Assembly: GCA_964505035.1 (NCBI GenBank)
Contig: CAZDGK010000005.1
Span: 1 to 34,623, forward strand
Length of the DNA stretch: 34,623 nucleotides
Reading direction: 5' to 3'
DNA from: an uncultured Candidatus Saccharimonadales bacterium
GTDB taxonomy: Bacteria > Patescibacteriota > Saccharimonadia > UBA4664
In this document: positions 1 through 23,285 of the stretch, one piece after another
How positions within the stretch are numbered: the stretch's first letter is position 1
Layout of the letters: each line of letters opens with the position of its first letter
Notes under the pieces: model-generated
The model's database searches: none
What the model was told of the DNA's origin: nothing
Seen by the model: only the letters and a program-made list of their open reading frames with translations
Position numbers and translations under genes: made by a program

Positions 1-3000
1 AGGATCTCGATGAGGGCCAGGTTGAACTGATCGGCGGTTGGGGCGGTGTCGTTGATGGTGACGACGGTGCCGGAGGCCGGGGTGGGCGCGGTCTGGCGCT
101 GCACCCAGTAGGTGTCGCCGGCGGGGGCCAGGTATTGGTCGACTAGGGTTTGGTTGGGACCGACGGTGCGAGCGGTGGCGGTGGACCAGTCGGTGCCGGC
201 GGCCCAAATCCAGGAACCGGCCCGGGTGGTAGTGATGGTGGCCGTGGGGGCGCCGGTGGCGGCACTGGCGCCGGCGGTGGCGCCCAGGGCAGTGTCGGCA
301 TTCTTGAAGCCGGCCACGGTGATGGTGCCTTGCCACGAGCCACTGGCCCGGGTGGCGGTAACGGCGGTGGCGGTGAGGGGTCCGGGCGCCACGGCCTGCC
401 AGATCTCGGCGGTGCCGGACTGGGTGTTTTGACGCTTTCGCAAGGTCCAGGTGAGACCGCCCCCAGACACTGAGCTAAACGAGGTGGCACCGGAGCCGCT
501 GGGCCCATCGGAGCTGAGGAAGGCTAGCAGCAGCTCGTTTGACTGAGTGGTGGTGATGGCCGGCGACGTAATGGTGGTACCGGCGACCGATTGGTGGGTG
601 GTCACCTGCGCGTCCAGGCTGATGACTGATGGGCCGGTGGGGACGGTGGCGGAGGCCGCATTGGAGGCCGGGCCGACATTGCCGGCGGCGTCCTGGGCTG
701 TCACGGTGTAGCTATAGGCGGTGCCGGCTATGACCGAGCCGTCGGTGAAGCTGGTGCCGGTGGCGGTGCCGATGGGACTGCCGTCCCGGCTGATGTTGTA
801 GCGCGACACGCCCACGTCATCGGTGGCGGCGGTCCAGGCCAGCGCCACCTGACCCGGCGCCGGCGTGGCGGTGAGGCTGGTGGGAGCGGTGGGCGGCGTA
901 GTGTCGGCGGTGGTGGTAGCCACAGTCTCATTGGACGACGGGCTGACGTTGGCGGCGGCATCTTCGGCCCGCACCTGGTAGTAGTAGGTGCCGGGAGCCA
1001 GCCCAGAGTCGGTGTAATTGAGGGCCGATCCGCTGACCTGAGCCACCTGGTTGGCTGGGCTGGGTGTGAAGCCCGCCGCCGTGGAGCGGAAAACGTCATA
1101 GTGAGCCACGCCAACGTTATCGGTGGCCGCCGCCCAGCTCAGGTCGACCTTGCCGACACCGCCGGCAGCTGCGAGGTTGGTGGGGGCGGTGGGGGCTACA
1201 TTGTCTTCGAACGGCGCCGGGAAGCGGACGAAGCTCGAGACCGACGGCACGCCGTTGCCGTTCACAATTGACAGCAGGTAGTAGCCGGGAGGGGCGTAAT
1301 TGCCGTTTTGGGGCATCTGGACGTTGAGACCGCCGGCAGTTTGGGTGAAGCTCAGCGACAGCGCCCGGGCGTTTTGGTCAAAAGCGTGGGTGCCGGAACC
1401 GGTGCGGATGAGCGAAACCCGCGTGATATTGGCAGCGTCCGGGGTTTGCACGAAGGTACTGGTGTTGTACTGGACCGTGCCGGGAACGGAGGTAATGGTG
1501 GGGCGGGCGCCTTTGAACAGGTAGGACGGTGAGTAGATTTGGTAGTTCTGCTCGTCGGGTACGCCCGGGTCACCGCCGGAGCCGCTGACGAACACCCGGC
1601 CGTCGGGCAGCAGCTGGGCCGTGGAGTGGTAGAGACGAGGGGCGGTGAGCGCAGCCACCGTGTGCCAGGTGCCGGTGGCCGGGTCCCAAATTTCGGCCGG
1701 CAAGACGGCGTGAGCTTCGTTGAAGCCGGTACGCTCAGTGCCTCCGCCGGTGGCCAGGACTGTGCCGTCGGGCAGGTTGGTGAGGTTGGTGAAGCTGCGC
1801 GGGAAGGCCATGGAGCCGGTGGGCTGCCAAGTGGGGTTGGGTTGGTTCATATCGAGGGTGTAGGCAGTGTTGGCTGCGTTGCCGGTGTTGCCGTCATCGG
1901 CCGCCGTGCCGGCCTTCATGAATTTGCCAGGAGCGTAGTTGGCAATGCTGGAGCCGTCGATGATGCGCGCGTCAACCGTGGACCAGGTTTGCAGGTTGGA
2001 GCTGAGGACTTCGGTTTGGGTGGCGATTTCGCTGGCGCCGGCCCAGAGCACGCGGCCGTCGGGGAGCTGATACATGAACGGGTAAATGGGAATGTTGTGG
2101 GTGGCCGAGGTGAGGTCACTCCACGTGTTGTGCTGGGTGTCGTAGATCTCGGGGACTTGGATGAGATCGCTGGCAGAGCTGCCGTAGCCGGCCGTGACCA
2201 GGACGCGGCCATCGCCCAGGGTGGTGCCGGTGGCATACCAGCGCGCGTAGTGCATGTCGGCTAGCGTCTGCCAACTTTCGGTGGCGGGGTTGAAGGCGGT
2301 AATGGTTTTGGTGCCGAGCCCGCCGGAGGTGGAGGTGCCGCCGATGACCATGATTTTGCCGTCGGGCAGGACCGCTTGGCCGGCGCAGAACAGGTCGGCC
2401 AGGGCGTTGGGGACTTGGGTTTGGGCGCCGTTTGACGGGTTGAGCAGATACTGGGCGCCGCCCTGACTGAAGTCGCCCTGGAAGGTGAGGATTTTGCCGG
2501 TGTAGGTGAGCGCGGCATGGATGGAAACCTCGGGCCAGGCTACAACCGGACCCCAAGCGCCAACGACTGACGGATCGCTGGAGCCGTTGCTAACGGTGAC
2601 GGTTACGGTGGCCGAGGTGGCGGTGTTGCCGGAGGTGTCGGTAGCTACGGCTGCCAACGTGTGGCTACCGGCCACCGCCGTGGTGGTGTCCCAGTTGACT
2701 GAGTATGGGCTGGCGGTGTCGGCAGCGCCGAGGTTGGCGCCGTCGAGGGTGAACTGAACCGCGGCTAGGCCGACGTTGTCGCTGGCGTTGGCAGCCACCG
2801 AGATGGTGCCGGAAACGGTGGTGCCGTCGGGCGGGGTGGTCAGGGCGACGGTGGGCGGCGTCAGGTCGTTATTGACGCTAACCGTGATGGTGGCGGCCGT
2901 GGCGGTGTTGCCGGCGGCGTCGCGGGCGATAGCCGACAGCGTGTGGCTGCCGTTACCGACGGTCTTGGTGTCCCAACTGGCGGCGTACGGTGCGGTGGTG

Positions 3001-4460
3001 TCTTCGGCTCCCAGGTTGGCACCGTCGAGCACGAATTGGACGCCGGCCACCCCGGTGTTGTCGGCGGCATTGGCGGTTACATTTACGGTGCCGAGGACGG
3101 TGGCGTTGTTGGCCGGCGCGGTCAGGCTGACGGTGGGTGGCGTGGTGTCGGCGACCGGGTCGGCAGTGGTAAAGGTAGCGTCGGCCGAAACGGCGGCGTT
3201 ACCGGCGGCGTCGGCGGATTTAACACGGTAGTGGTAGAGGGTGCTGGCGGTCAGGCCGGCCAGCGTTTGGCTGTGGTTGGTAACGAGCGCCGGTGCGAGC
3301 GTAGTTGAACTGCCGTAGCTCGTGTCCAGGCCATACTCAACCTGGGTGGTGGCGGGCTCGTCGGTGGTCCAGCTGATAGTCGCCCCGGTCTGGGTGGGGG
3401 TCCCGCTCGAGACAGCGCCAATCACCGGTGGCGTGGTGTCGGGCGCCGGCGTGGTGACGGTGGCCGGAGCCGAGTCCGCCGAGGTGTTGCCGGCGGCGTC
3501 AAATGCCCGCACGGTGTAGCTGTAGGCGGTGCTGGCCGCGGCGGTGGTGTCGGAATAGCTGGTAGCGGTGGCCGTCCCAATCTGGGTGCCGCCGCGCAAG
3601 ATCCGGTAGCCGGTGACGGCAGTGTCGTCGCTGCTGGCGCTCCAGCTAAGGTCGACCCGGGTAGAGCTGACGGCCGTGGCGGTCAGGCCCCCGGGCACCG
3701 AGGGGGCGGTGGTGTCGGTGGCCGCGGCCGGGATTTCGATCAGGGCCAGGTTCCAGCGGTCGGTGGTGGGCGCGGTGTCGTTAATGGTCACCGGCGCGGG
3801 TGCCGGAGTGGCCGCGTTCTGCCGCTGCGTCCAAAATGTATCGCCGGAAGCGGCCAGATATTCGTCCACCTTGGTTTGAGTCGGGCCAACTGTCCGCGCT
3901 ATGGCCTGGTCATAATCATTACCCACGCCCCAGACCCACGACCCGGCCCGGGTGGTCGAGAGGGTGGCACTGGGCGCTCCGGTGGCGGCATTGGCCCCGA
4001 TGGTGGCTCCATCGGCCGTAATATCGGCGCCGATAAAGGTGGCGACGGTAATGGAAGCATTATATGAACCGGAATGGGTCCCCTTGACGGTGGCGTTGGT
4101 GACCACGCTCGGAGCCACGGCCTGCCAAATCTCGGCGGTGCCGCGCTGGGCGTTGGTGCGCTGGCGCAACCGCCAGGTGAGTCCCCCACCCGTCACTGAG
4201 CTGAAGGTCTGCGCCGTACCCGGCCCGTCGGTGGCCAGGAAAGCCACCAGCAGCTCGCCGCCCTGCGAGGTGGTAAAGGCCGGCGAGGTGACCGAGGTAG
4301 CCTTGGTGGTAGCATGAGCACTGACGAGCTTGTCGATCACCAGCCCGCCGGCCGCCTGCGCCCCGCTCTTGGCAAACTGCAAGCTGCTCGACAGCCCGCC
4401 AATGGTTAGAATTGCGATAAGAGCAACCGAGAATCTGCGTAACCCCGACACACGACGCAT
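1..4460 (-). CDS. Large secreted multidomain copper radical oxidase (AA5, galactose oxidase/GlxA-like) with Fn3 and Ig-like domains; 3' end truncated by the window edge
   Basis: Manual minus-strand translation from ATG 4460 (MRRVSGLRRFSVALIAILTIGG..., signal-peptide-like) stays open to base 1. Motifs in frame: DLFCAG (Cys 2385-2387), RWYAT (Tyr 2235-2237), RLYHST (1626-1631), GTHAFDQN (His 1386-1388), PPGYYLL. Kelch-like LPDG.V...GG repeats; DTTPP/DAAGN-bounded Fn3 and Ig modules. Absent from the ORF track because there is no stop in the window. Confidence 0.93.
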   Translation of the reverse strand, partial: MRRVSGLRRFSVALIAILTIGGLSSSLQFAKSGAQAAGGLVIDKLVSAHATTKATSVTSPAFTTSQGGELLVAFLATDGPGTAQTFSSVTGGGLTWRLRQRTNAQRGTAEIWQAVAPSVVTNATVKGTHSGSYNASITVATFIGADITADGATIGANAATGAPSATLSTTRAGSWVWGVGNDYDQAIARTVGPTQTKVDEYLAASGDTFWTQRQNAATPAPAPVTINDTAPTTDRWNLALIEIPAAATDTTAPSVPGGLTATAVSSTRVDLSWSASSDDTAVTGYRILRGGTQIGTATATSYSDTTAAASTAYSYTVRAFDAAGNTSADSAPATVTTPAPDTTPPVIGAVSSGTPTQTGATISWTTDEPATTQVEYGLDTSYGSSTTLAPALVTNHSQTLAGLTASTLYHYRVKSADAAGNAAVSADATFTTADPVADTTPPTVSLTAPANNATVLGTVNVTANAADNTGVAGVQFVLDGANLGAEDTTAPYAASWDTKTVGNGSHTLSAIARDAAGNTATAATITVSVNNDLTPPTVALTTPPDGTTVSGTISVAANASDNVGLAAVQFTLDGANLGAADTASPYSVNWDTTTAVAGSHTLAAVATDTSGNTATSATVTVTVSNGSSDPSVVGAWGPVVAWPEVSIHAALTYTGKILTFQGDFSQGGAQYLLNPSNGAQTQVPNALADLFCAGQAVLPDGKIMVIGGTSTSGGLGTKTITAFNPATESWQTLADMHYARWYATGTTLGDGRVLVTAGYGSSASDLIQVPEIYDTQHNTWSDLTSATHNIPIYPFMYQLPDGRVLWAGASEIATQTEVLSSNLQTWSTVDARIIDGSSIANYAPGKFMKAGTAADDGNTGNAANTAYTLDMNQPNPTWQPTGSMAFPRSFTNLTNLPDGTVLATGGGTERTGFNEAHAVLPAEIWDPATGTWHTVAALTAPRLYHSTAQLLPDGRVFVSGSGGDPGVPDEQNYQIYSPSYLFKGARPTITSVPGTVQYNTSTFVQTPDAANITRVSLIRTGSGTHAFDQNARALSLSFTQTAGGLNVQMPQNGNYAPPGYYLLSIVNGNGVPSVSSFVRFPAPFEDNVAPTAPTNLAAAGGVGKVDLSWAAATDNVGVAHYDVFRSTAAGFTPSPANQVAQVSGSALNYTDSGLAPGTYYYQVRAEDAAANVSPSSNETVATTTADTTPPTAPTSLTATPAPGQVALAWTAATDDVGVSRYNISRDGSPIGTATGTSFTDGSVIAGTAYSYTVTAQDAAGNVGPASNAASATVPTGPSVISLDAQVTTHQSVAGTTITSPAITTTQSNELLLAFLSSDGPSGSGATSFSSVSGGGLTWTLRKRQNTQSGTAEIWQAVAPGPLTATAVTATRASGSWQGTITVAGFKNADTALGATAGASAATGAPTATITTTRAGSWIWAAGTDWSTATARTVGPNQTLVDQYLAPAGDTYWVQRQTAPTPASGTVVTINDTAPTADQFNLALIEI
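3731..4343 (-). repeat. Intragenic duplication: ~200-aa beta-rich domain, first copy (second copy at ~1..629)
   Basis: Both copies contain ELL.AFL..DGP, GGGLTW.LR.R.N.Q.GTAEIWQAVAP, TTRAGSW.W..G.D, GDT.W.QRQ and INDTAPT.D..NLALIEI. The DNA stretch gccacggcctgcca(g/a)atctcggcggtgccg occurs near 388 and near 4114. Confidence 0.9.
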
Positions 4461-4614
4461 ATAAGCCCCCAAGTTAGATACGCTATTAAATGTGCTCCGC
4501 AAAAGCAAAAAAGTAAAGGTCAGGGCTGGTGAAGTTCTAGCGTAACCCACGACCCGGAGCCAGAAATTATTGTTGCAAAACAGTCGATCAAGCCTTGACT
4601 ACTGCCTTGAGTTG

Positions 4615-4635
4615 ATATACCCTAGGGGGGTATAT
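4615..4635. promoter_or_regulatory. CsoR operator overlapping the promoter of the DUF4396-csoR operon
   Basis: Perfect inverted repeat ATATACCC-TAGGG-GGGTATAT, the C-tract/G-tract type-1 CsoR/RcnR site. It lies between TTGAGT (4607-4612) and TATATT (4631-4636), 10 nt before ATG 4646. Confidence 0.88.
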
Positions 4636-4645
4636 TGGAGACCGC

Positions 4646-5128
4646 ATGAACGACCACGAGATGAATGGCCATGACCACAGCGCCATGCAGAAAAATATGG
4701 CTGCCAGTGCTACCCTACATTGCCTGGCGGGCTGTGCGATCGGCGAGATGATTGGTGTGACAGTCGGCACGCATGCTGGCTTTGCGCCTCACCAAACGGT
4801 TATTTTGGCGGCTATACTATCGTTCATATCGGGATATAGTGTGTCGACCTGGCCCCTGGTAAAGGCAGGGGCTTCGTTTCTTAAAGCCGTGCGCCTGGTG
4901 TTTGCCGCTGACACTGTCTCAATCCTGACCATGACGCTGGCGGATAATCTGATAATGCTCCTGATTCCCGGGGCCATGGATAAAAACTTGGCCCATTCGG
5001 TTTATTGGTATAGCAGGATTCTGTCCTTATCGGCTGCATTTATCACGGCCTACCCAGTGAATGTCTATCTGCTCAGACACGGCAAAGGACATGCACTTAC
5101 CCATAGCTACCACGAGCGTAATCACTAG
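4646..5128 (+). CDS. DUF4396-family membrane protein with His/Met-rich termini
   Basis: TLHCLAGCAIGE motif, about 4 TM segments, AYPVN..L...GKGHA C-terminus; N-terminus MNDHEMNGHDHSAM. Confidence 0.85.
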   Translation: MNDHEMNGHDHSAMQKNMAASATLHCLAGCAIGEMIGVTVGTHAGFAPHQTVILAAILSFISGYSVSTWPLVKAGASFLKAVRLVFAADTVSILTMTLADNLIMLLIPGAMDKNLAHSVYWYSRILSLSAAFITAYPVNVYLLRHGKGHALTHSYHERNH

Positions 5129-5136
5129 GAGCTTAT

Positions 5137-5415
5137 ATGAAGTATGGATACGCCGAAAACAAAGAAGCCATCCTCAAGCGCCTGAAGCGGGCCGAGGGGC
5201 AGGTTCGCGGAGTAGCGCACATGGTCGAAAAGGACGAATATTGCATCGATATTCTGACGCAAATAAAAGCGCTACAGGCGGCGGTTGATAAGGTTGCGAT
5301 CGAGCTGGTACGTGACCATGCCAGGCACTGCATGGTGCAGGCTAAGGATGTAGCCGAGCAACGACAAAAAGCCGATGAGCTGGTTGGCGCCATCGGTAGG
5401 ATGCTTTCTCGCTAG
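5137..5415 (+). CDS. csoR: CsoR-family copper-sensing repressor
   Basis: RLKRAEGQVRG...YCIDILTQ...DHARHC gives the Cys-His-Cys Cu(I) ligand set; SD AGGAG overlaps the upstream stop. Confidence 0.92.
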   Translation: MKYGYAENKEAILKRLKRAEGQVRGVAHMVEKDEYCIDILTQIKALQAAVDKVAIELVRDHARHCMVQAKDVAEQRQKADELVGAIGRMLSR

Positions 5416-17015: not shown

Positions 17016-17096
17016 CGCGCACAGTATAGCAGAATGGCCTGAGAGCGGGCTGTGATCTTGCCCGGGAGGGCGCGGGCGGCTACCATAAGAATAGAG

Positions 17097-18503
17097 ATGC
17101 TAAGCAAGTTCTCAGCAGGAGCATGGTGGGCGTGGATGAGCAACCCCCTGAAAGTGGTGCCGCTGCTAGCGGCGGTTTTGGGTTTGATGATGGTATTCCT
17201 GGCGCCGCCACTAGGCCGGGTGCCGGATGAACCCTACCACTTCTATCGGGCAGTAGGGATCTCACAAGGGCATATTTGGGCCGAGAGGCTGCAAGGACAG
17301 GACGGCCTGGAGCTGGGTGGGTATATTCCGCGGTCGCTGCAGAAGCTGACGGCTCCCCTACTGCATTCCAAACTGGACTTTGATAAGACGATTTGGCAGC
17401 GGTTTGACGGCTCGGCGGTATATAGTCCGGTGCCGTATGTGCCACAGGTGTTGGGCGTGCTGACCGGGCGGCTCCTGGACCTGCCGCCATTTGGATTGTT
17501 CTATCTGACGCGGCTGTTTAATCTGGCGGCCTGGGTGGCTATGGTGTATGCGGCGATCCGAATAGCGCCGCGATGGGGCTGGGCGACTGGAGCAGTGGCC
17601 CTACTGCCGATCACGGTGTTCCAGTCGGGCACGGTGACGGCCGACGTGATGACGGTGGGACTATCGATGCTGCTAGTGGCTCAGGTGGTGAGAGCCGCTA
17701 CCGAGCCTGGCGCCTTAAGCCGCCGGGAATACAGCTGGCTCGTGGCGACGGCGGCCGCGCTGGCCCTGACCAAGCCGCCGCTGGCGCTGCTGCCGCTGGC
17801 GGCCATGGCGATCCCGCGGCGGCGGTATGGCAGCACCCGCCGGTGGCTGGCTGGCCTGGCTGGCATAGTGCTGCCAGGACTCCTGCTGGTGGCCGCCTGG
17901 AGCGCGACGGTGGGCCGGGCCAACGTGACTCAAGGCTTTGTGGAGGCACACCCGATGGCTCAGGTGCAAGCTATCGTGCATGACCCTTGGATCTTCCCGC
18001 AGGCAATGCTGAACCTACACTTTGTGGATAGTGACCGGAGCTTCCAATTGATAGCTTCGGCGACGACGCCGGCTGGCTGGCTGGGAATACCGACCTACCT
18101 GTGGGTGGTAATGGTGAGCTACGCGGTGCTGACGCTGGCGATATTGGCGCTGGTGGAGCCCGAGCCGGCGCTGGCGCGGCCGGGGCAGCGCTGGGCGTTT
18201 CTGGGCACCTGGGCGGTGGTGGTGGCAGCAACAGAGGGTGTATTGTATCTGTACTTTAGCGAAGTCGGCGGCCGGGTGGTCAACGGTGTGCAAGGCCGGT
18301 ATTTTATCCCGATGCTGTTGCTGCTACCATTCGCACTAAGAAGTAAGGGATTGTTTGTGCAGACATCGCGCAAAACTCTGAGCCTCCTGGTGGTCGGCGG
18401 CAGCCTGCTGGCGGTGGCGGCGCTGGTGGCGGTGCTGCTGGAGGGCTACCCGCTGCATTTTGACTACTTTAGCCGGGTATGCACGCAATGGTGCCAGCCA
18501 TGA
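17097..18503 (+). CDS. DUF2142-family GT-C-like polytopic membrane glycosyltransferase
   Basis: PP...PDE.YH..RA, YSPVPYVPQ, RLFN and GVQGRYFIP motifs; about 10 TMs. Start at ATG 17097 after TTGCCC-17-TACCAT. Confidence 0.85.
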   Translation: MLSKFSAGAWWAWMSNPLKVVPLLAAVLGLMMVFLAPPLGRVPDEPYHFYRAVGISQGHIWAERLQGQDGLELGGYIPRSLQKLTAPLLHSKLDFDKTIWQRFDGSAVYSPVPYVPQVLGVLTGRLLDLPPFGLFYLTRLFNLAAWVAMVYAAIRIAPRWGWATGAVALLPITVFQSGTVTADVMTVGLSMLLVAQVVRAATEPGALSRREYSWLVATAAALALTKPPLALLPLAAMAIPRRRYGSTRRWLAGLAGIVLPGLLLVAAWSATVGRANVTQGFVEAHPMAQVQAIVHDPWIFPQAMLNLHFVDSDRSFQLIASATTPAGWLGIPTYLWVVMVSYAVLTLAILALVEPEPALARPGQRWAFLGTWAVVVAATEGVLYLYFSEVGGRVVNGVQGRYFIPMLLLLPFALRSKGLFVQTSRKTLSLLVVGGSLLAVAALVAVLLEGYPLHFDYFSRVCTQWCQP

Positions 18504-18850
18504 TGATCGCACTGGGACTGGTGGTGGCTGGGCTGCTGGTGCTCGGGCAGACGCTCTGGAAAATGGCGGCTGGTGCGGCCACGGCGAGCGGCTTGGCCGA
18601 GCGAAGCTGGCAGACGTTTCTGAGCCCGACATTCCTGGCCGGAGCGGTGCTGTACGTGGTAGCGACGGCGCTGTACGTGGACCTGCTCGGCAAGAATGAC
18701 TATTTCCGGGTGCAATCGGTGGTAGTGCCGGCGGCGCTGGTGCTAGCCTTGGCGGTGAGCGTACTGAAGTTCCATGAGCGCGTGAGTATGCTGAATTTGG
18801 CTGGCATGGTGCTGCTACTGATAGCAATTGGGTTGATATTGAAGCGATGA
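18500..18850 (+). CDS. Small 4-TM SMR/EamA-like protein (ArnE/F-like candidate flippase)
   Basis: GQTLWK, P.FLAG..LY and F.E.VS..NL.G..L...G pattern; ATGA overlap with the upstream stop. Confidence 0.7.
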   Translation: MMIALGLVVAGLLVLGQTLWKMAAGAATASGLAERSWQTFLSPTFLAGAVLYVVATALYVDLLGKNDYFRVQSVVVPAALVLALAVSVLKFHERVSMLNLAGMVLLLIAIGLILKR

Positions 18851-19560
18851 AGGGGGCAGGTGTGAATAGTGATGTCTGTGTGATTATCCCGGCTCATAAT
18901 GAGTCACAGGTGATTGGCCAGGTGCTCGAAGGCGTGCTAGAGCGCTTTAGCCGGGTGGTGGTGGTCAATGACGGCAGCAGCGACAATACGGCCGAGGTGG
19001 CGCGGCGCTACCCGGTGACGGTGCTGTCGCACGCGGTGAATCTGGGACAGGGCGGGGCGATGCAGACGGGCTTCGACTGGGCACTGCAGCAGCCAGAGGT
19101 GGAGTATTTCATCAGCTTTGATTCGGACGGCCAGCACCGAGTGGAGGACGCTGAGCGCATGCTGGCCGAGGCTCGCAAGGGCGATGTGGACCTCGTGCTG
19201 GGATCGCGGTTCCTCGACGGCGCAGTGCGGCCGCCCGGCTCGCGGCGGTGGCTGCTGCTGGCGGCCACCTGGTTTAACTACGCACTGACGGGCCTGCACC
19301 TGACGGACGCGCACGTGGGCCTGCGGGTGTTTAACCGGCGGGCGGCATCGGAGCTGAAGCTGACGATGTCTGACATGACGCACGCCACGGAGATCGAGAG
19401 CCGGATCCGCCAGAAAGGCTGGCGCTACAAGGAAATTCCGGTGACGATTGACTACACCGACTACTCGCGGAGTGCCCGGGGGGCATCGGGCCAGCGCAGC
19501 TCCAATGCGATCAATCTGGCGTTTGACTTATTACTACACCGACTAGGCGGGGGGAAATAA
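18847..19560 (+). CDS. GT2 polyprenol-phosphate glycosyltransferase (DPM1/PpgS-like)
   Basis: IIPAHNE, VNDGSSD, NLGQGGA, FDSDGQH, VLGSRF, TDAH.GLR; ATGA-coupled. Confidence 0.92.
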   Translation: MKGAGVNSDVCVIIPAHNESQVIGQVLEGVLERFSRVVVVNDGSSDNTAEVARRYPVTVLSHAVNLGQGGAMQTGFDWALQQPEVEYFISFDSDGQHRVEDAERMLAEARKGDVDLVLGSRFLDGAVRPPGSRRWLLLAATWFNYALTGLHLTDAHVGLRVFNRRAASELKLTMSDMTHATEIESRIRQKGWRYKEIPVTIDYTDYSRSARGASGQRSSNAINLAFDLLLHRLGGGK

Positions 19561-19561
19561 C

Positions 19562-19921
19562 ATGCTCGTGCAAGTAATCCTGATCGTGGCGGTGATGATG
19601 GCGCTACTGTACTTCCTGGGCAACCGCAACACGACACAGCTGCGAGCGGGCAAGAAGGTACTGTTTGTGCTGTTTGTGGTAGCGGCGATTGTGTCAATCC
19701 TGGCGCCGGACGCGCTAACCTGGCTGGCCCACCTGGTGGGAGTGGGTCGCGGCGCAGACCTGCTGCTGTATGGGCTGGTGGTGGCGTTTGTCTATGTGTC
19801 GCTAAATATATACTTCAAGTTCAAGGAATTGGCCCAGCGCCAGGCCCGGGTCGTGCGAGCGATGGCGCTGCTGGAAGAGCGGCTAAATAAGGCCACCGGG
19901 CCAGACGAGCAGGCAAAATAG
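19562..19921 (+). CDS. DUF2304-family membrane protein
   Basis: LAHLVGVGRGADLLLY motif, 3 TMs and a coiled tail; directly after the GT2 gene. Confidence 0.9.
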   Translation: MLVQVILIVAVMMALLYFLGNRNTTQLRAGKKVLFVLFVVAAIVSILAPDALTWLAHLVGVGRGADLLLYGLVVAFVYVSLNIYFKFKELAQRQARVVRAMALLEERLNKATGPDEQAK

Positions 19922-19922
19922 A

Positions 19923-19948
19923 GGCCGTCCCAGCGGACTGGGACGGCC
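19923..19948. terminator. Hairpin between convergent genes
   Basis: Perfect 11-bp stem GGCCGTCCCAG-CGGA-CTGGGACGGCC; T-rich run follows on the minus strand. Confidence 0.75.
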
Positions 19949-19953
19949 ATGGT

Positions 19954-20283
19954 TCACGCGGCTGGCGCCGGACCCGATGTGGGCGCGGCTCCCGGCTTGG
20001 GCGGCCGGCGGTACTTGCGGATGCCGAGCAGGATGAGGAGGACTGCGAAGAATCCTCCGACCAGCTCGATGTCGTCGGGCAGAATGCCGACGACGTCATC
20101 CGCGAGCACGAGCGGCATCAGTGCCACCAGACCAACGGCCAGCTTGTGGCCGCGGGTGATGTGACCCTTGAGGTCGCCGTTGCGGAGGTACAGGCGGAAC
20201 GCCTGCCACCGCGACGGCCTGACCCATTCGGCGGCCGGAACCGCGGGAAGTGCGCGAGCGGGTGGCTTGCTACCCTGACTCAT
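19954..20283 (-). CDS. Hypothetical membrane protein, weakly YkvA/DUF1232-like
   Basis: Two hydrophobic segments around LADDVVGILPDD; SD AAGGTGG; its own promoter upstream. Confidence 0.6.
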   Translation of the reverse strand: MSQGSKPPARALPAVPAAEWVRPSRWQAFRLYLRNGDLKGHITRGHKLAVGLVALMPLVLADDVVGILPDDIELVGGFFAVLLILLGIRKYRRPPKPGAAPTSGPAPAA

Positions 20284-20337
20284 GACACCACCTTTCCCTG
20301 TGAGAACCAATCTAACTGGTGTGCGTTAGATTATGCA

Positions 20338-20388
20338 ATTATACCACTGAGCGAGCATATTTACAAGCGTACAAATTAATTGTATACT
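20338..20388. promoter_or_regulatory. Divergent promoters with overlapping -35 boxes and a candidate operator
   Basis: Minus strand: TTGTAA(20366-20361)-17-TATAAT(20343-20338). Plus strand: TTTACA(20360-20365)-17-TATACT(20383-20388). Palindrome TACAA-N5-TTGTA at 20370-20384. Confidence 0.72.
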
Positions 20389-20424
20389 CGATGGGTTCGG
20401 TCCGGCACGACGAGAGGAGAACCG

Positions 20425-20904
20425 GTGACTGAACCGATGAGTGAAACGCAAGGGCTGCTGCGGCGACTGCTGGACGATTTCGGCATGAGCCAAAGCCACA
20501 TCGCGACCATGGTCGGCACCACTGTGTATACGGTGCGGCAATGGTCGCGCGGCGAGACCCAGCCAACGCCAGTCCGGCCACTGCCAGCTCAGCTGGAGCG
20601 GCTGTACGAGATCCTGGGCCTACTCGGCCTCATGAAGCTGATGGGCGATCAGCAGGATCCGGTGGCCTGGCTGGAGACCCCGCTCAGGTCGCTGGGCGAG
20701 GACTACCGCCTGCGGCCGCTGGACCTGTGCTGGCGGGGCCGGCTCGGCGAGAACATGCCGCTGGTGTACGCACTGGCATCGACGGACGACGACCTGCACT
20801 CGATCCTGCTGGATCAGAACCTGCCCGGCTGGAGAGAGACCTGCAAGTCGACACACCGGGTGTTCATCGCCGACGACGGCCATCCGTCCCTTGCGCCGCG
20901 CTAA
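20425..20904 (+). CDS. XRE-type HTH protein with an MbcA/ParS/Xre-antitoxin-like C-terminal region
   Basis: GMSQSHIATMVGTTVYTVRQWSRGE HTH; WLETPL..L....RPLDL. GTG 20425 follows AGGAG (ATG 20437 is an alternative start). Confidence 0.65.
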   Translation: MTEPMSETQGLLRRLLDDFGMSQSHIATMVGTTVYTVRQWSRGETQPTPVRPLPAQLERLYEILGLLGLMKLMGDQQDPVAWLETPLRSLGEDYRLRPLDLCWRGRLGENMPLVYALASTDDDLHSILLDQNLPGWRETCKSTHRVFIADDGHPSLAPR

Positions 20905-20914
20905 CGCGCGGCCT

Positions 20915-20948
20915 GGGCTCCCAGAGATTCTGGGAGCCCGATTTTTGT
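20915..20948 (+). terminator. Intrinsic terminator
   Basis: GGGCTCCCAGA-GAT-TCTGGGAGCCC followed by GATTTTTGT. Confidence 0.8.
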
Positions 20949-20956
20949 CTAGGAGA

Positions 20957-22393
20957 CTATGGGCCAGAGGTGCTGAGCTGCTGGATGACGTCCATTTGCT
21001 CGCTGAGCTGCCGGATACCACCGTCCTTGCCCGAGACCGGGCAGGTGAGACCAAGACCACCATGGGGATATCCGGGCTGACCTTTCTTTGCTAAGACGGT
21101 CTTCATATAGGCAATGTGGCGCTCGCGGATTTCGGCCTCAACTTCGGGTCGCAGCGCGAGGCGGCCACCGGGTTCGACAATGAGTGGATTGGGGAAATAA
21201 TGTCCGACCATGGCCAACGGCCCAACCATACCCATAGGCACCATGCGAGTGATACGCTCGATCATCCCCTGCTCTATGAGATCATGCATGAGCTTATTGG
21301 GGTCGTCGTAGCCTTCGACTTTGTTGCAGGTGAGCATGGTGATCGTCTGCATGATAGACAAGACGCCCTCATGGACGGCGGCTTTAGGAGCATACCCCTT
21401 GAGGTTGCCATCTTCCATCGGGGTGGCTGCCCCTTGATCGTTGGCTCGAGCCGTGTGGAGCTGGAGGAAGCTCATGTGCTGCTGAGCGATCTGCTGAGCA
21501 TCGTCCTGAACGGCGCGGTCAAGAACCTCGATAGCGTAGGCCGTAGTGCGACCCAAGTCACGGGCGAACTCGGGACCGTAGTCCCCAACCGGAGTGATGA
21601 TAACGCCATAGGGCATGGTGTGATACTCGGTATCGGTGGAGGTGAGCACGAAGTCTTTGTTCCGACCGGTGGCGGCGCTGTACCGGCGATGGGTGTTAAA
21701 TGTGCGGTTGAGATAGACCATGAACATGTCACCCTCTTTGTTCCGGTCTTTGAATGACTGATAGGTGTCTTCGTACTGGCGCCATTGGTCGGGATAGATG
21801 ACTTCGCCGTCATACTGGAGTTGGTTCATCCGGTTGGTTAGCAGGTTGATGGTGTCGTCCCGTCGATAATCATCAGGGGTGAGTTGGAAAAATCGTTTTT
21901 CCTCGGCTGTGCCCTCACGAGTGATCCGGTCAATGAAGGCGGTGGCCAGCCGGCGGGCTTCGTCGGTCCCCACTCCGGCCGGGACGGCAGGCGGTTGATC
22001 GCCAAAGAAGCCGGGTGGGAGCTTGATATAGACTTCGCCATATGGCGCGAGTGCAAATGGTCGGTCGCGGATGCGCTCGCGGCATTCGGCCGGGTTGGCC
22101 TCGAGCATAGCCTTGAGGTGCTGGGCGCCGGCGATGGAGAGCGGGTCAAAGATCTCTTGGAGTTGCTTGCGATCCTTGGCGCCCTCGCCAATGAGCTTAC
22201 GCTCTCCAGGTGTGAGATCATGGGCATTGCGAGGGGCTGGCGGAACGACGACGACAGGTTCGTGATCGTCTTCGACTAGCGCTGCAATGGACTGGGCGGC
22301 TTCCGGGTGCTCATCCGGAGCTGATACCAACTCAGCGGGATCGACCGCGGGGTGAAATGATTCGGAACCGGTGGGAGGTAAGTGCTCTGGCAT
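20957..22393 (-). CDS. Hypothetical cytoplasmic protein (478 aa)
   Basis: Long ORF with protein-like composition; ATG 6 nt after TACAAT; no family recognised. Confidence 0.8.
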   Translation of the reverse strand: MPEHLPPTGSESFHPAVDPAELVSAPDEHPEAAQSIAALVEDDHEPVVVVPPAPRNAHDLTPGERKLIGEGAKDRKQLQEIFDPLSIAGAQHLKAMLEANPAECRERIRDRPFALAPYGEVYIKLPPGFFGDQPPAVPAGVGTDEARRLATAFIDRITREGTAEEKRFFQLTPDDYRRDDTINLLTNRMNQLQYDGEVIYPDQWRQYEDTYQSFKDRNKEGDMFMVYLNRTFNTHRRYSAATGRNKDFVLTSTDTEYHTMPYGVIITPVGDYGPEFARDLGRTTAYAIEVLDRAVQDDAQQIAQQHMSFLQLHTARANDQGAATPMEDGNLKGYAPKAAVHEGVLSIMQTITMLTCNKVEGYDDPNKLMHDLIEQGMIERITRMVPMGMVGPLAMVGHYFPNPLIVEPGGRLALRPEVEAEIRERHIAYMKTVLAKKGQPGYPHGGLGLTCPVSGKDGGIRQLSEQMDVIQQLSTSGP

Positions 22394-22397
22394 GGCC

Positions 22398-23285
22398 TTA
22401 TTGTAAACGCTTTTTCAGATACGATGCAAAGCCGGGGCCGAGGTCGGGGTCGGCCAGGGCGATATCGGCGATGCACTCCAGGTATTTCTGCTTGTTGCCG
22501 GTGTCGTGCCAGGTGCCCTCGAGGACCTGGCCATAGACGGTGCCGGACTTGGCGAGGCTGGTGATGGCGGTGGTGAGGTAGATTTCGCCGTCGGCGTGAG
22601 GGGCGGCGTCCTCGAGTGGGCGGAAGATATCAGGCGTGAGGACGTAGCCGCCAATGGACGCATAGGCAGACGGCGGTTCGCCGGCGGGCTTTTCGACGAT
22701 GCCGTCGAGCTTGAGCAGGCCGTGGCCAAGATCTTGGGCGACGCTAGCCATGCCATAATTTTTGGCCTTGTCGGCCTCGATGGGGATGAGCGAGATGACA
22801 GGCGCCTGGAGCTGGTCGTAGGCCTCAACTAGCTGGACGGCGCGAGGCTTGGGGCCGACGAAGACCTCGTCGGCCCACATCACGAGGAACGGCTCGTCGC
22901 CCAGGAGGTGGGCGGCGTTGAGGATGGGTACGCCATTGCCGATGGGCGTGCCGTTGTCACTGACGAGCGGCTTCTGGCGGACGTAGATGAAGTTGGCCAT
23001 CTCGGCGATGGAGCGCAGCTGGTCGGCCACTTCCCCTTTGCCGGCGCGGTCCAGGCGAGCTTCGAGCTCGTATTGGTGATCGAAGTGGTCCTCGACGCTG
23101 CGCTTGTGGGCACCGGTGACGATAATGATGTCGGTGATGCCGGCCGCGACGACCTCCTCCACGACGTACTGGATAATGGGCTTGTCGATGACTGGCAGCA
23201 TTTCCTTGGGCATAGCCTTGGTCTGGGGCAGGAAGCGGGTGCCGAGACCGGCGGCGGGGATAACGGCCTTGGTGATTTTTGTCAT
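22398..23285 (-). CDS. galU: UTP--glucose-1-phosphate uridylyltransferase
   Basis: KAVIPAAGLGTRFLP.TKA.PKEMLP..DKP, VEDHFD, VEKP, GEIYLT, DTG. Confidence 0.92.
   Translation of the reverse strand: MTKITKAVIPAAGLGTRFLPQTKAMPKEMLPVIDKPIIQYVVEEVVAAGITDIIIVTGAHKRSVEDHFDHQYELEARLDRAGKGEVADQLRSIAEMANFIYVRQKPLVSDNGTPIGNGVPILNAAHLLGDEPFLVMWADEVFVGPKPRAVQLVEAYDQLQAPVISLIPIEADKAKNYGMASVAQDLGHGLLKLDGIVEKPAGEPPSAYASIGGYVLTPDIFRPLEDAAPHADGEIYLTTAITSLAKSGTVYGQVLEGTWHDTGNKQKYLECIADIALADPDLGPGFASYLKKRLQ

Follow-up and report, generated by a model that had tools for sequence, protein, structure and literature searches.

A predicted multidomain AA5-type copper radical oxidase in a Saccharimonadales genome, probably acquired from Actinomycetota

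We analysed a stretch of 34,623 nucleotides (the window) from an uncultured Candidatus Saccharimonadales bacterium, which starts at base 1 of contig C5 (CAZDGK010000005.1) in an assembly (G000) of 1.236 Mb, 71 contigs and 99.3% completeness. The first 4.5 kb of the window carry a gene for a large protein in which a predicted copper radical oxidase is framed by two copies of a domain that we call X. Our best explanation, which we hold with a probability of roughly two in three, is that the product is a functional exported oxidase of AA5 type, tethered to polysaccharide through X, whose gene was transferred from Actinomycetota.

A single open frame encodes a complete protein of 1489 residues

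A preliminary description made from the letters had proposed one open frame of at least 1486 codons, with its strand unstated, and had suggested extending the contig to find the stop. Positions 4460 to 3 of the minus strand indeed form a single open frame of 1486 codons from an ATG at 4460, and its translation contains zero stops. When open ends are allowed, the open reading frame (ORF) listing gives 3..4550, 1516 aa from an upstream GTG. A plain ORF track would miss the oxidase, because its frame is listed only if ORFs may run off the sequence. The stop was reached on another contig, C23, three codons past the window. Window 1-55 reappears without mismatch, in reverse complement, as bases 1-55 of C23; the 55-mer shared by the two contig ends is unique in the genome. 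Continued into C23, the frame closes after Leu-Ala-Arg (...LIEI-LAR-stop) for a total of 1489 aa, and the closest full-length relatives share the C-terminal ending, as LIEILAR or LIEILAK. The oxidase protein is essentially complete at 1489 aa. Given the frame length and Pfam E-values down to 1.5e-33, the frame is not a product of chance. The gene and the parts of its product are listed below, all on the minus strand.

3..4460, minus: copper radical oxidase gene, codons 1-1486 of 1489, with the last three codons and the stop on C23 bases 56-67 (translation, contig overlap, relatives)
4353..4460, minus: signal peptide, residues 1-36 (inspection of the translation; matching A-x-A sites in relatives)
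3705..4355, minus: domain X, N-terminal copy, residues 36-252, all-beta, no Pfam family (internal comparison, profile, model)
3456..3698, minus: fibronectin type III (fn3) domain, residues 255-335 (Pfam)
3165..3413, minus: Fn3-like domain, residues 350-432 (Pfam, Pur_ac_phosph_N match)
2931..3137, minus: Big_7 Ig-like domain 1, residues 442-510 (Pfam)
2571..2870, minus: Big_7 Ig-like domain 2, residues 531-630, with about 61% identity to domain 1 (Pfam, internal comparison)
1506..2570, minus: catalytic kelch beta-propeller, residues 631-985 (Pfam, PDB match, alignment, model, Foldseek)
1224..1505, minus: GO-like E-set domain (DUF1929), residues 986-1079 (Pfam)
621..1214, minus: two fibronectin type III domains, residues about 1083-1280 (NCBIfam, match to chitinase A1 Fn3 1k85)
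3..620, minus: domain X, C-terminal copy, residues 1281-1486 (internal comparison, alignment)
2385..2387, minus: Cys692, predicted thioether partner and sole Cys (GlxA alignment, invariance)
2235..2240, minus: Trp741-Tyr742, the Tyr being the predicted cross-linked equatorial copper ligand and the Trp adjacent to it as in GlxA (alignment)
1626..1631, minus: Tyr944-His945, predicted axial Tyr and copper-ligand His (alignment)
1386..1388, minus: His1025, predicted second copper-ligand His (alignment)

The order of parts given in the preliminary description (signal peptide, X, Fn3, Fn3-like, two Ig, kelch with E-set, two Fn3, X) was borne out, mainly by Pfam. Within the catalytic part, Kelch/Glyoxal_oxid_N (PF07250) was matched at residues 687-805 with 53.4 bits against a cut-off of 37.5, and GO-like_E_set (PF09118) at residues 986-1079 with 78 bits against a cut-off of 25. 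The two X copies, one at each end of the protein and each of about 210 residues, are 60-62% identical to one another. The N-terminus has an Arg-rich start, the sole hydrophobic segment at about residues 10-30 and then an AQA-A site, which by inspection looks like a cleavable signal peptide. Neither a lipobox Cys, an LPXTG motif, a second membrane segment nor a C-terminal anchor was found in the oxidase protein. With its signal cleaved and no anchor, the oxidase would leave the membrane and be retained, if at all, only through its own domains.

The catalytic core has the fold and the cofactor residues of GlxA

The catalytic core was compared with GlxA of Streptomyces lividans and S. coelicolor (PDB 4UNM, 5LQI, 5LXZ; NCBIfam NF052501), which gave the strongest sequence match of any solved structure. 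In the phmmer alignment to 4unm (E = 2.7e-45), the query motifs FCAG (starting at residue 691), RWY (740), LYHS (943) and THAF (1024) pair with DLFCTG, ARWY, NYHS and STHV of GlxA. The corresponding alignment positions F61, C62, W111, Y112, Y314, H315, T394 and H395 are invariant in 15/15 catalytic regions, which range from 30 to 80% identity. The catalytic residues named in the preliminary description (the Cys, the Tyr, the Tyr-His and the distal His) are therefore all present in conserved positions. The numbering of the ligands in GlxA agrees with passages of PMC11611005. A role of the GlxA pair Trp288/Tyr289 is described in a passage of that paper (PMC11611005). Cys692 is the lone cysteine among the 1486 residues, which fits an exported protein whose one thiol serves the Tyr-Cys cofactor.

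Five loci (L024, L016, L017, L018 and L022) were excluded from this catalytic alignment (A1) owing to stops, frame changes or partial matches. Four of them, L018, L017, L022 and L024, are oxidase loci in other assemblies with frame changes or stops inside the catalytic region; the frame changes appear as split tblastn matches, and L024 holds two stops. Either gene decay or errors in the assemblies may lie behind these disruptions.

An AlphaFold2 model of residues 631-1082 (mean predicted local distance difference test score, pLDDT, 88.9; predicted TM-score, pTM, 0.91) matched the known enzymes by Foldseek. The query TM-score (TMq) was 0.90 to GlxA, 0.88-0.90 to Fusarium galactose oxidase and 0.86-0.87 to the Pseudoarthrobacter siccitolerans galactose oxidase (9g43, 9g8h). 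Together with the two Pfam matches above their cut-offs, the model agrees with the AA5-type class given in the preliminary description. These data support the prediction of a complete, secreted, multidomain AA5-type copper radical oxidase, and it is highly likely that the gene encodes a working one.

GlxA is the joint best fold match, has the five cofactor residues in common with the query and likewise carries a Trp directly before the cross-linked Tyr. However, the two share only about 22% identity in the structural alignment, and the query scores 225 bits against the cut-off of 800 of the GlxA equivalog NF052501. Domain 2 of GlxA (residues 111-234), which caps the copper site, has no counterpart in the query, where residues 712-717 bridge the gap; the target TM-score (TMt) is only 0.67-0.69 although TMq is 0.90. 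GlxA is membrane-associated, whereas the query carries the cleavable-looking signal peptide and, in its X, Fn3 and Ig modules, about 1000 residues that GlxA lacks. The glxA gene lies with the cellulose-synthase-like gene cslA. No cslA-like gene was found beside the query oxidase, and the nearest GT2 gene lies 14 kb away. Judged by sequence and model, the query is not a GlxA orthologue. In passages of PMC11611005, GlxA is described as a bacterial enzyme that works outside the cytoplasm and takes part in depositing glycan.

The galactose oxidase of P. siccitolerans (9G43; 9G8H with galactose) is also actinobacterial and has the same propeller and E-set core (E = 1.1e-44, 30% identity, TMq 0.86-0.87). 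It differs in having Gly before the cofactor Tyr (RGY, against RWY in the query), in its length of 617 aa, in another N-terminal domain and in the absence of X domains. It is known to us from PDB titles, and our literature search found no paper on it. The galactose 6-oxidase of Fusarium graminearum (1GOF) and the AA5_2 alcohol oxidases 5C86/5C92 share the fold and the ligand set (TMq 0.87-0.90) at E = 1e-33 to 1.6e-36 and 25-26% identity. An N-terminal CBM32 and a Gly-Tyr cofactor context are hallmarks of the AA5_2 galactose 6-oxidases. Unlike them, the query has no F5/8-type-C (CBM32) Pfam match, has Big_7 domains before the propeller and carries a W-Y pair like that of GlxA; without a CBM32 and with RWY instead of RGY, it would stand outside that group. 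The bacterial copper radical oxidases named in passages of the literature are GlxA, SCO2837p and a Stigmatella homologue (PMC11611005; PMC11267884). No paper on the multidomain X-oxidase-X family was found by a search at title and abstract level, nor any on a galactose oxidase of Saccharibacteria by title or abstract; a search for AA5 in bacteria of the Candidate Phyla Radiation returned no paper holding 'AA5' among the matches listed.

The resemblance to GlxA also allows another kind of enzyme, a free oxidase of small alcohols and aldehydes in soil (glycolaldehyde, polyols, aryl alcohols) in which the Fn3, Ig and X domains are mere spacers or stabilisers. Passages of PMC11611005 and PMC11267884 report that GlxA and SCO2837p act best on glycolaldehyde in vitro and that many AA5_2 enzymes prefer simple alcohols, and the W-Y pair and the Glyoxal_oxid_N match of the query are of the GlxA and glyoxal-oxidase kind. 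Yet about 1000 of the 1489 residues are non-catalytic modules of surface type that are conserved across the family, and X matches the catalytic core in its degree of conservation; 39 columns do not vary in 17 sequences, and many of these are Trp, Asp, Glu and Gln, a pattern suggestive of ligand binding. We regard a free small-molecule oxidase as improbable.

Strain variants carry a signature of purifying selection

Between 57 and 93% of the sampled words of window 1-4600 were found in four soil-metagenome runs of one study. The contigs of these runs differ from the window at 24 listed places inside the gene. At 20 of these the change falls in the third codon position and is synonymous, where one third would be expected (p = 6.6e-7), and no insertions or deletions within the gene are listed in the four runs. 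This pattern is the signature of purifying selection on the oxidase frame. Among the listed runs that hold the gene, none is an RNA run. A low-depth joint in run X1 (skipping 3152-3478, depth 2.6) lies among the repeated Fn3 and Ig domains; it was set aside as another organism or a repeat artefact.

Kelch propellers often serve as binding domains, and no copper chaperone was found in the genome (see below), so the propeller might be imagined as the lectin or scaffold of a non-catalytic adhesin that has lost its copper chemistry. The five cofactor residues are nevertheless invariant in all 15 sequences, the lone Cys stands exactly at the cofactor position, and one of the synonymous variants falls in the Tyr742 codon, so that the ligand is kept. 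An adhesin of this kind is extremely improbable.

The gene belongs to an actinomycete family and is rare in Saccharimonadia

Of 8000 candidates scored, at least 6277 with lengths of 817-2601 aa gave a match to the catalytic region (E <= 1e-10). The best 120 of these long relatives include 30 with a named organism, of which 27 belong to Actinomycetota, 1 to Chloroflexi and 2 to Patescibacteria/Saccharimonadales. The named Actinomycetota include Arthrobacter, Paenarthrobacter, Leifsonia, Pedococcus, Terrabacter, Cellulomonas, Sinomonas and Solirubrobacterales, among others. The relatives retain the order X ... oxidase ... X with a varying number of spacers. Those of Arthrobacter, Leifsonia, Pedococcus and Cellulomonas are 68-75% identical to the query over the catalytic region and share its layout with Fn3/Big_7 spacers, although most have fewer of them (about 1100-1400 aa); their owners have genomes of 3.4-5.2 Mb. 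These comparisons place the X-oxidase-X design in a large family that is at home in soil Actinomycetota. The preliminary description had called the enzyme hidden and giant; the first word holds for its absence from the plain ORF track, but the architecture is a common one in these bacteria, and most named relatives are already labelled 'galactose oxidase-like domain-containing protein'.

The chromosome around the gene, in contrast, is of Saccharimonadia. LexA at the far end of the window has relatives of 84-88% identity, and the 6 of 120 listed rows that are named are all Saccharimonadia, Saccharibacteria or Patescibacteria. Window genes between 4.5 and 24 kb have DNA-level relatives in 22/25 other genomes of the family, including a hydrolase gene 2 kb from the oxidase. 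LexA and these family-wide neighbours therefore assign the backbone to Saccharimonadia, and the genome of 1.24 Mb is small, as the preliminary description had supposed. The oxidase itself is rare in this group. It was matched (E <= 1e-20) in 4/53 genomes of the order, where the other three are only 35-38% identical, and in 2/401 sampled genomes of the phylum. The species-representative genomes with close relatives (68-80%) are one Saccharimonadales metagenome-assembled genome (MAG) of 0.9 Mb and several genomes of 3.4-4.6 Mb labelled Actinomycetes, Chloroflexota, Dormiibacterota and Microthrixaceae; Leifsonia isolates belong here too. As the owners are mostly large-genome bacteria and include cultured isolates, the basic job of the enzyme is not specific to an attached lifestyle.

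A quick, unrooted maximum-likelihood tree was computed from 55 catalytic regions, comprising 25 named and 22 unnamed sequences of the best 120, 7 loci and the query. In it, the query shares a clade (Shimodaira-Hasegawa-like approximate likelihood ratio test, SH-aLRT, 99) with a Jatrophihabitans MAG (85% identity), an Actinomycetes MAG and two unnamed sequences, adjoining a clade of Micrococcales. A sequence labelled 'Patescibacteria' clusters with Acidimicrobiales and Cellulomonas (96), and the position of the Saccharimonadales sequence lacks resolution in the tree. With four long rows excluded, grouping the three Patescibacteria rows in one clade is rejected by the approximately unbiased (AU) test (p = 0.0077). 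Because its closest kin are actinomycete sequences while the enzyme is rare in Saccharimonadia, horizontal transfer is likely, and we consider it probable that the oxidase gene came from an actinomycete gene pool. We read the pattern as transfer between phyla, most simply from Actinomycetota to Saccharimonadia, that would have happened more than once.

A gene at a contig end whose nearest relative (85%) is labelled Jatrophihabitans could also be an actinomycete gene wrongly joined to a Saccharimonadia contig in binning or assembly, and its G+C content (GC), at 0.669, is the same as at the actinomycete MAG locus L014 (0.671) and lies above the genome mean (0.607). However, the gene is continuous with 44 kb of C5 that bear the Saccharimonadia LexA and the family-wide genes. 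Logan contigs of independent assemblies bridge the 5' end of the gene, the intergenic region and the neighbouring gene for a DUF4396 protein (record 6 of run X1 covers 3627-4700 and record 30 of run X4 covers 4411-4677). Both flanks of the gene bear a motif restricted to genomes of this family, and two other Patescibacteria assemblies hold the same oxidase family. Such an artefact is very improbable.

In the Saccharimonadales homologue that lies in a genome of 50% GC, the GC is down to 52.7%. Other stretches of the present genome also reach a GC of 0.66-0.67 (C34:2500-12500 and C26:2500-7500); they may encode further Thr/Ala-rich surface proteins or be acquired DNA.

Domain X is a widespread surface module with a phage-tail-like predicted fold

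With a profile built from 17 copies of X, 2609 representative proteins were matched at a threshold of E <= 0.001, and 937 of them also at E <= 1e-30. Two or more copies were present in 114 of the best 150 X proteins, a ranking that favours multi-copy proteins. When 38 X proteins picked for their spread of lengths were scanned with Pfam, 2 carried the oxidase E-set, 8 Big_7, 8 CarboxypepD_reg-type domains and 2 PASTA, and 14 had no Pfam domain at E <= 1e-12. Named short X proteins come from Arthrobacter (2), Streptosporangiaceae, Bathyarchaeia and Terriglobales; of 10 X proteins looked up by name, a single one had an organism given, a Mycobacterium sp. MAG. From these contexts X appears to be a general module of large surface proteins. 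It was found in 3/53 genomes of the order. The sole other X domains there (loci L026 and L027) are non-oxidase: G047:C64:39413-40024, in a 1608-aa frame, and G033:C1:838546-839160, in a 588-aa frame. Genome G047 also carries a distant oxidase (38% identity) on a separate contig.

In the alignment of 17 X sequences, Trp, Asp, Glu, Gln and Asn are frequent among the 39 columns that do not vary, and the model of X is confident (pLDDT 93.4, 15 strands). X matched no Pfam family (best E = 0.045-0.15), a profile search of PDB sequences gave a best E of 0.57, and Foldseek against the PDB returned nothing at E <= 0.001 (best TMq 0.29). The best match to a solved structure in a wide VIA-align search was TgPLP1 APC-beta (Z 5.5). 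Matches of half-domains to TNF/C1q-like folds and jelly rolls of carbohydrate-binding modules in VIA-align (Z 4-5) were taken as a common arrangement, and an internal duplication of X was rejected since its two halves lack similarity (E = 5).

Predicted viral structures gave a different result. A search of the BFVD with the X model returned 78 structures at E <= 0.001, the highest TMq being 0.80. Among the 50 listed matches, 12 bear the name minor tail protein and belong to phages of Mycobacterium or Gordonia (for example the Mycobacterium phages Gaia, Shauna1 and Tweety; E 1.6e-07 to 1.5e-05, TMq 0.53-0.68), another is a glycerophosphodiester phosphodiesterase of a Microbacterium phage, and the best unnamed phage protein reached E = 2.9e-10 and TMq 0.76. 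Independently of this, the clusters closest to X in the ESM Atlas consist mainly of hypothetical proteins from viruses (score 0.96). The phage tail structures are themselves predictions, with functions by annotation only, and the models suggest that X shares the minor-tail-protein fold at the level of fold only. We infer that X is a wall- or glycan-binding module; that it tethers the oxidase to a glycan surface has, in our judgement, an even chance.

The viral resemblance invites a reading in which the oxidase is directed at a host. This reading sharpens the preliminary description, which had proposed modification of host-surface glycans, scavenging of O2 or delivery of peroxide as possible roles. 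X would dock the epibiont on an actinobacterial wall, and the oxidase would modify wall glycans or deliver H2O2 for attachment, feeding or killing. Besides the fold of X and its viral nearest clusters (0.96), this would agree with the origin of the gene family in Actinomycetota, the phylum of the known Saccharibacteria hosts, and with the catalase not found in the genome. On the other hand, the identical architecture occurs in cultured Arthrobacter, Leifsonia, Pedococcus and Cellulomonas, where host attack is impossible, and the oxidase is present at high identity in 1/26 genomes of the family, so it is no part of a core lifestyle. A cell in which no catalase was found would face its own peroxide, and the ligand assumed for X is an inference in this reading too. 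We consider a host-directed tool unlikely.

A putative copper-responsive unit and a family-specific motif adjoin the gene

The 186-bp spacer upstream of the oxidase start (4460) separates it from a divergent gene pair and contains two short elements.

4534..4571, strand not assigned: intergenic motif of about 40 nt, core CCGGGTCGTGGG on the minus strand, followed by TAGAAC (motif search)
4615..4635, strand not assigned: CsoR-type operator, a perfect 8+8 inverted repeat (ATATACCC, 5 nt, GGGTATAT) (sequence scan)
4646..5128, plus: DUF4396 membrane protein, divergent from the oxidase gene (family match)
5137..5415, plus: csoR (Trns_repr_metal, PF02583, 95.4 bits at 5161-5394) (profile; C...HxxxC pattern)
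C23:725-799, minus: tRNA-Asn(GTT), 0.7 kb downstream of the oxidase stop

The inverted repeat, whose shape we take to be that of a CsoR box, overlaps the -10 element of a promoter of sigma-70 type, lies 11 nt ahead of the start codon of DUF4396 and is the only perfect TACCC-N5-GGGTA in the genome. The N-terminus of the DUF4396 protein is rich in His and Met and its first helix contains a CxxxC, and csoR is the only CsoR-family match of the genome. The repeat, DUF4396 and csoR (4615-5415) form a putative compact copper-responsive unit. In the family, DUF4396 homologues of 34-50% identity occur in 11/26 genomes, four of them with an in-frame stop, and csoR stands beside DUF4396 in 1/10 short loci of relatives.

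Sco (PF02630), HMA (PF00403) and catalase (PF00199) were not found in the 99.3% complete genome. A haem-copper oxidase subunit I (COX1) is encoded at C3:43919-45286 on the plus strand (465.9 bits). An oxygen-using enzyme is therefore not out of place in this cell, and the suggestion of the preliminary description that the bacterium is probably fermentative is doubtful. A surface-glycan gene set (a DUF2142 membrane protein, a GT2 glycosyltransferase and a nucleotidyl transferase) lies at window 17052-23285, 12-19 kb from the oxidase.

The 40-nt motif has exactly two copies in the genome, one upstream of the oxidase (4534-4571) and one just past its stop (C23:70-110), in the same orientation and with several mismatches. 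It was found only in genomes of this Saccharimonadia family (relatives L029-L036), where it occurs in arrays of 2-4 copies spaced 0.5-1.8 kb apart. Its reverse complement lies about 60-200 nt upstream of assorted accessory genes, which encode a DUF7768 protein, a NUDIX protein, an Mrr-type nuclease, a nucleoside hydrolase, a Fic protein and an ECF (extracytoplasmic function) sigma factor. The motif may be a promoter or operator, or a recombination site of a variable gene region. A role as the promoter of the oxidase was rejected, because in the relatives that orientation precedes no real genes, whereas the reverse complement does. Rfam gave no match in the intergenic region 4400-4700, and no synteny was found between the motif arrays of the relatives and the flanks in G000. 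The oxidase would thus appear to fill a slot between two motif elements, in reverse orientation.

Between the oxidase stop and tRNA-Asn lies a convergent ORF of 178 aa to which no family was assigned; tRNA genes are common landmarks of inserted DNA. In one contig of run X3, window base 1 is linked by 22 letters to window 4567 and the sequence descending from there, a head-to-tail joint at depth 4.9, and the 22 joint letters match the sequence after the stop on C23 at 20/22 positions. This joint could be a tandem copy, an excised circle or a strain with an upstream-like repeat downstream. A branch of this type would explain the assembly break at window base 1.

Discussion

The explanation that we favour combines the following steps. 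The propeller would bind one copper ion through Tyr742, Tyr944, His945 and His1025, and a thioether between Cys692 and Tyr742 would form the radical cofactor. The enzyme would use O2 to oxidise a primary alcohol, or else the hydrate of an aldehyde, and would release H2O2. Its catalytic core would be carried on Fn3/Ig spacers between the two X copies, which would bind a cell-envelope or other polymeric glycan and so hold the enzyme on a polysaccharide surface, rather than free in solution; that surface may be the envelope of the cell itself, the wall of a host or polysaccharide in the soil. The gene would have been taken up by horizontal transfer into a variable, accessory part of the chromosome, and the adjoining CsoR-controlled DUF4396 module may supply or buffer the copper of the oxidase.

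Several observations weigh against this explanation or parts of it. The GC at third codon positions of the gene (GC3 = 0.822, 92nd percentile of 468 long ORFs, z = 1.18) carries no foreign mark, and composition was dropped as a signal of transfer, a 92nd percentile being not decisive. The excess of gene GC (0.669) over genome GC (0.607) stems largely from Thr/Ala/Gly-rich codons, an amino-acid effect. The tree is a quick one in which several of the closest relatives are MAGs with binning-dependent labels and two are unnamed, and the probable direction of transfer rests on distribution, as the tree is unrooted. For the copper module, tblastn of the window's neighbour genes (7 proteins, DUF4396 included) against 19 related oxidase loci gave no match. 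The neighbourhood is not conserved, and the copper link is therefore possibly a coincidence. With no Sco, HMA or catalase found, copper loading and peroxide handling lack an explanation. X had no sequence match in tblastn against 50,697 phage records, one weak match in PHROGs (E = 0.027) and no clear match to a solved structure (best Z 5.5). In the literature we found no measurement of activity, copper binding or the cross-link for any member of the subfamily.

A bolder combination of the same elements is distinctly unlikely. In it, the X pair would be phage-tail-like receptors for actinobacterial walls. The X-oxidase-X gene, captured from the host phylum, would dock the cell and oxidatively remodel or peroxide-stress the host wall, with copper delivered through DUF4396, and would still be a cassette between the 40-nt repeats.

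The proposed exported, X-tethered oxidase, probably acquired from Actinomycetota, leaves knowledge of the enzyme class itself unchanged, as this kind of enzyme is already known. It draws attention to a very large family of bacterial multidomain oxidases for which no characterised member was found in the literature searched. The adjacency of CsoR and DUF4396 raises the question of how a cell in which neither Sco nor CopZ was found loads copper outside the membrane. The confident model of X, resembling only phage proteins, leads to the hypothesis of a new cell-wall-binding module. For the Saccharibacteria, the gene encodes a predicted O2-dependent, peroxide-making copper enzyme that is kept under purifying selection in an ultra-small genome, is rare in the group and probably came from the phylum that hosts these epibionts.

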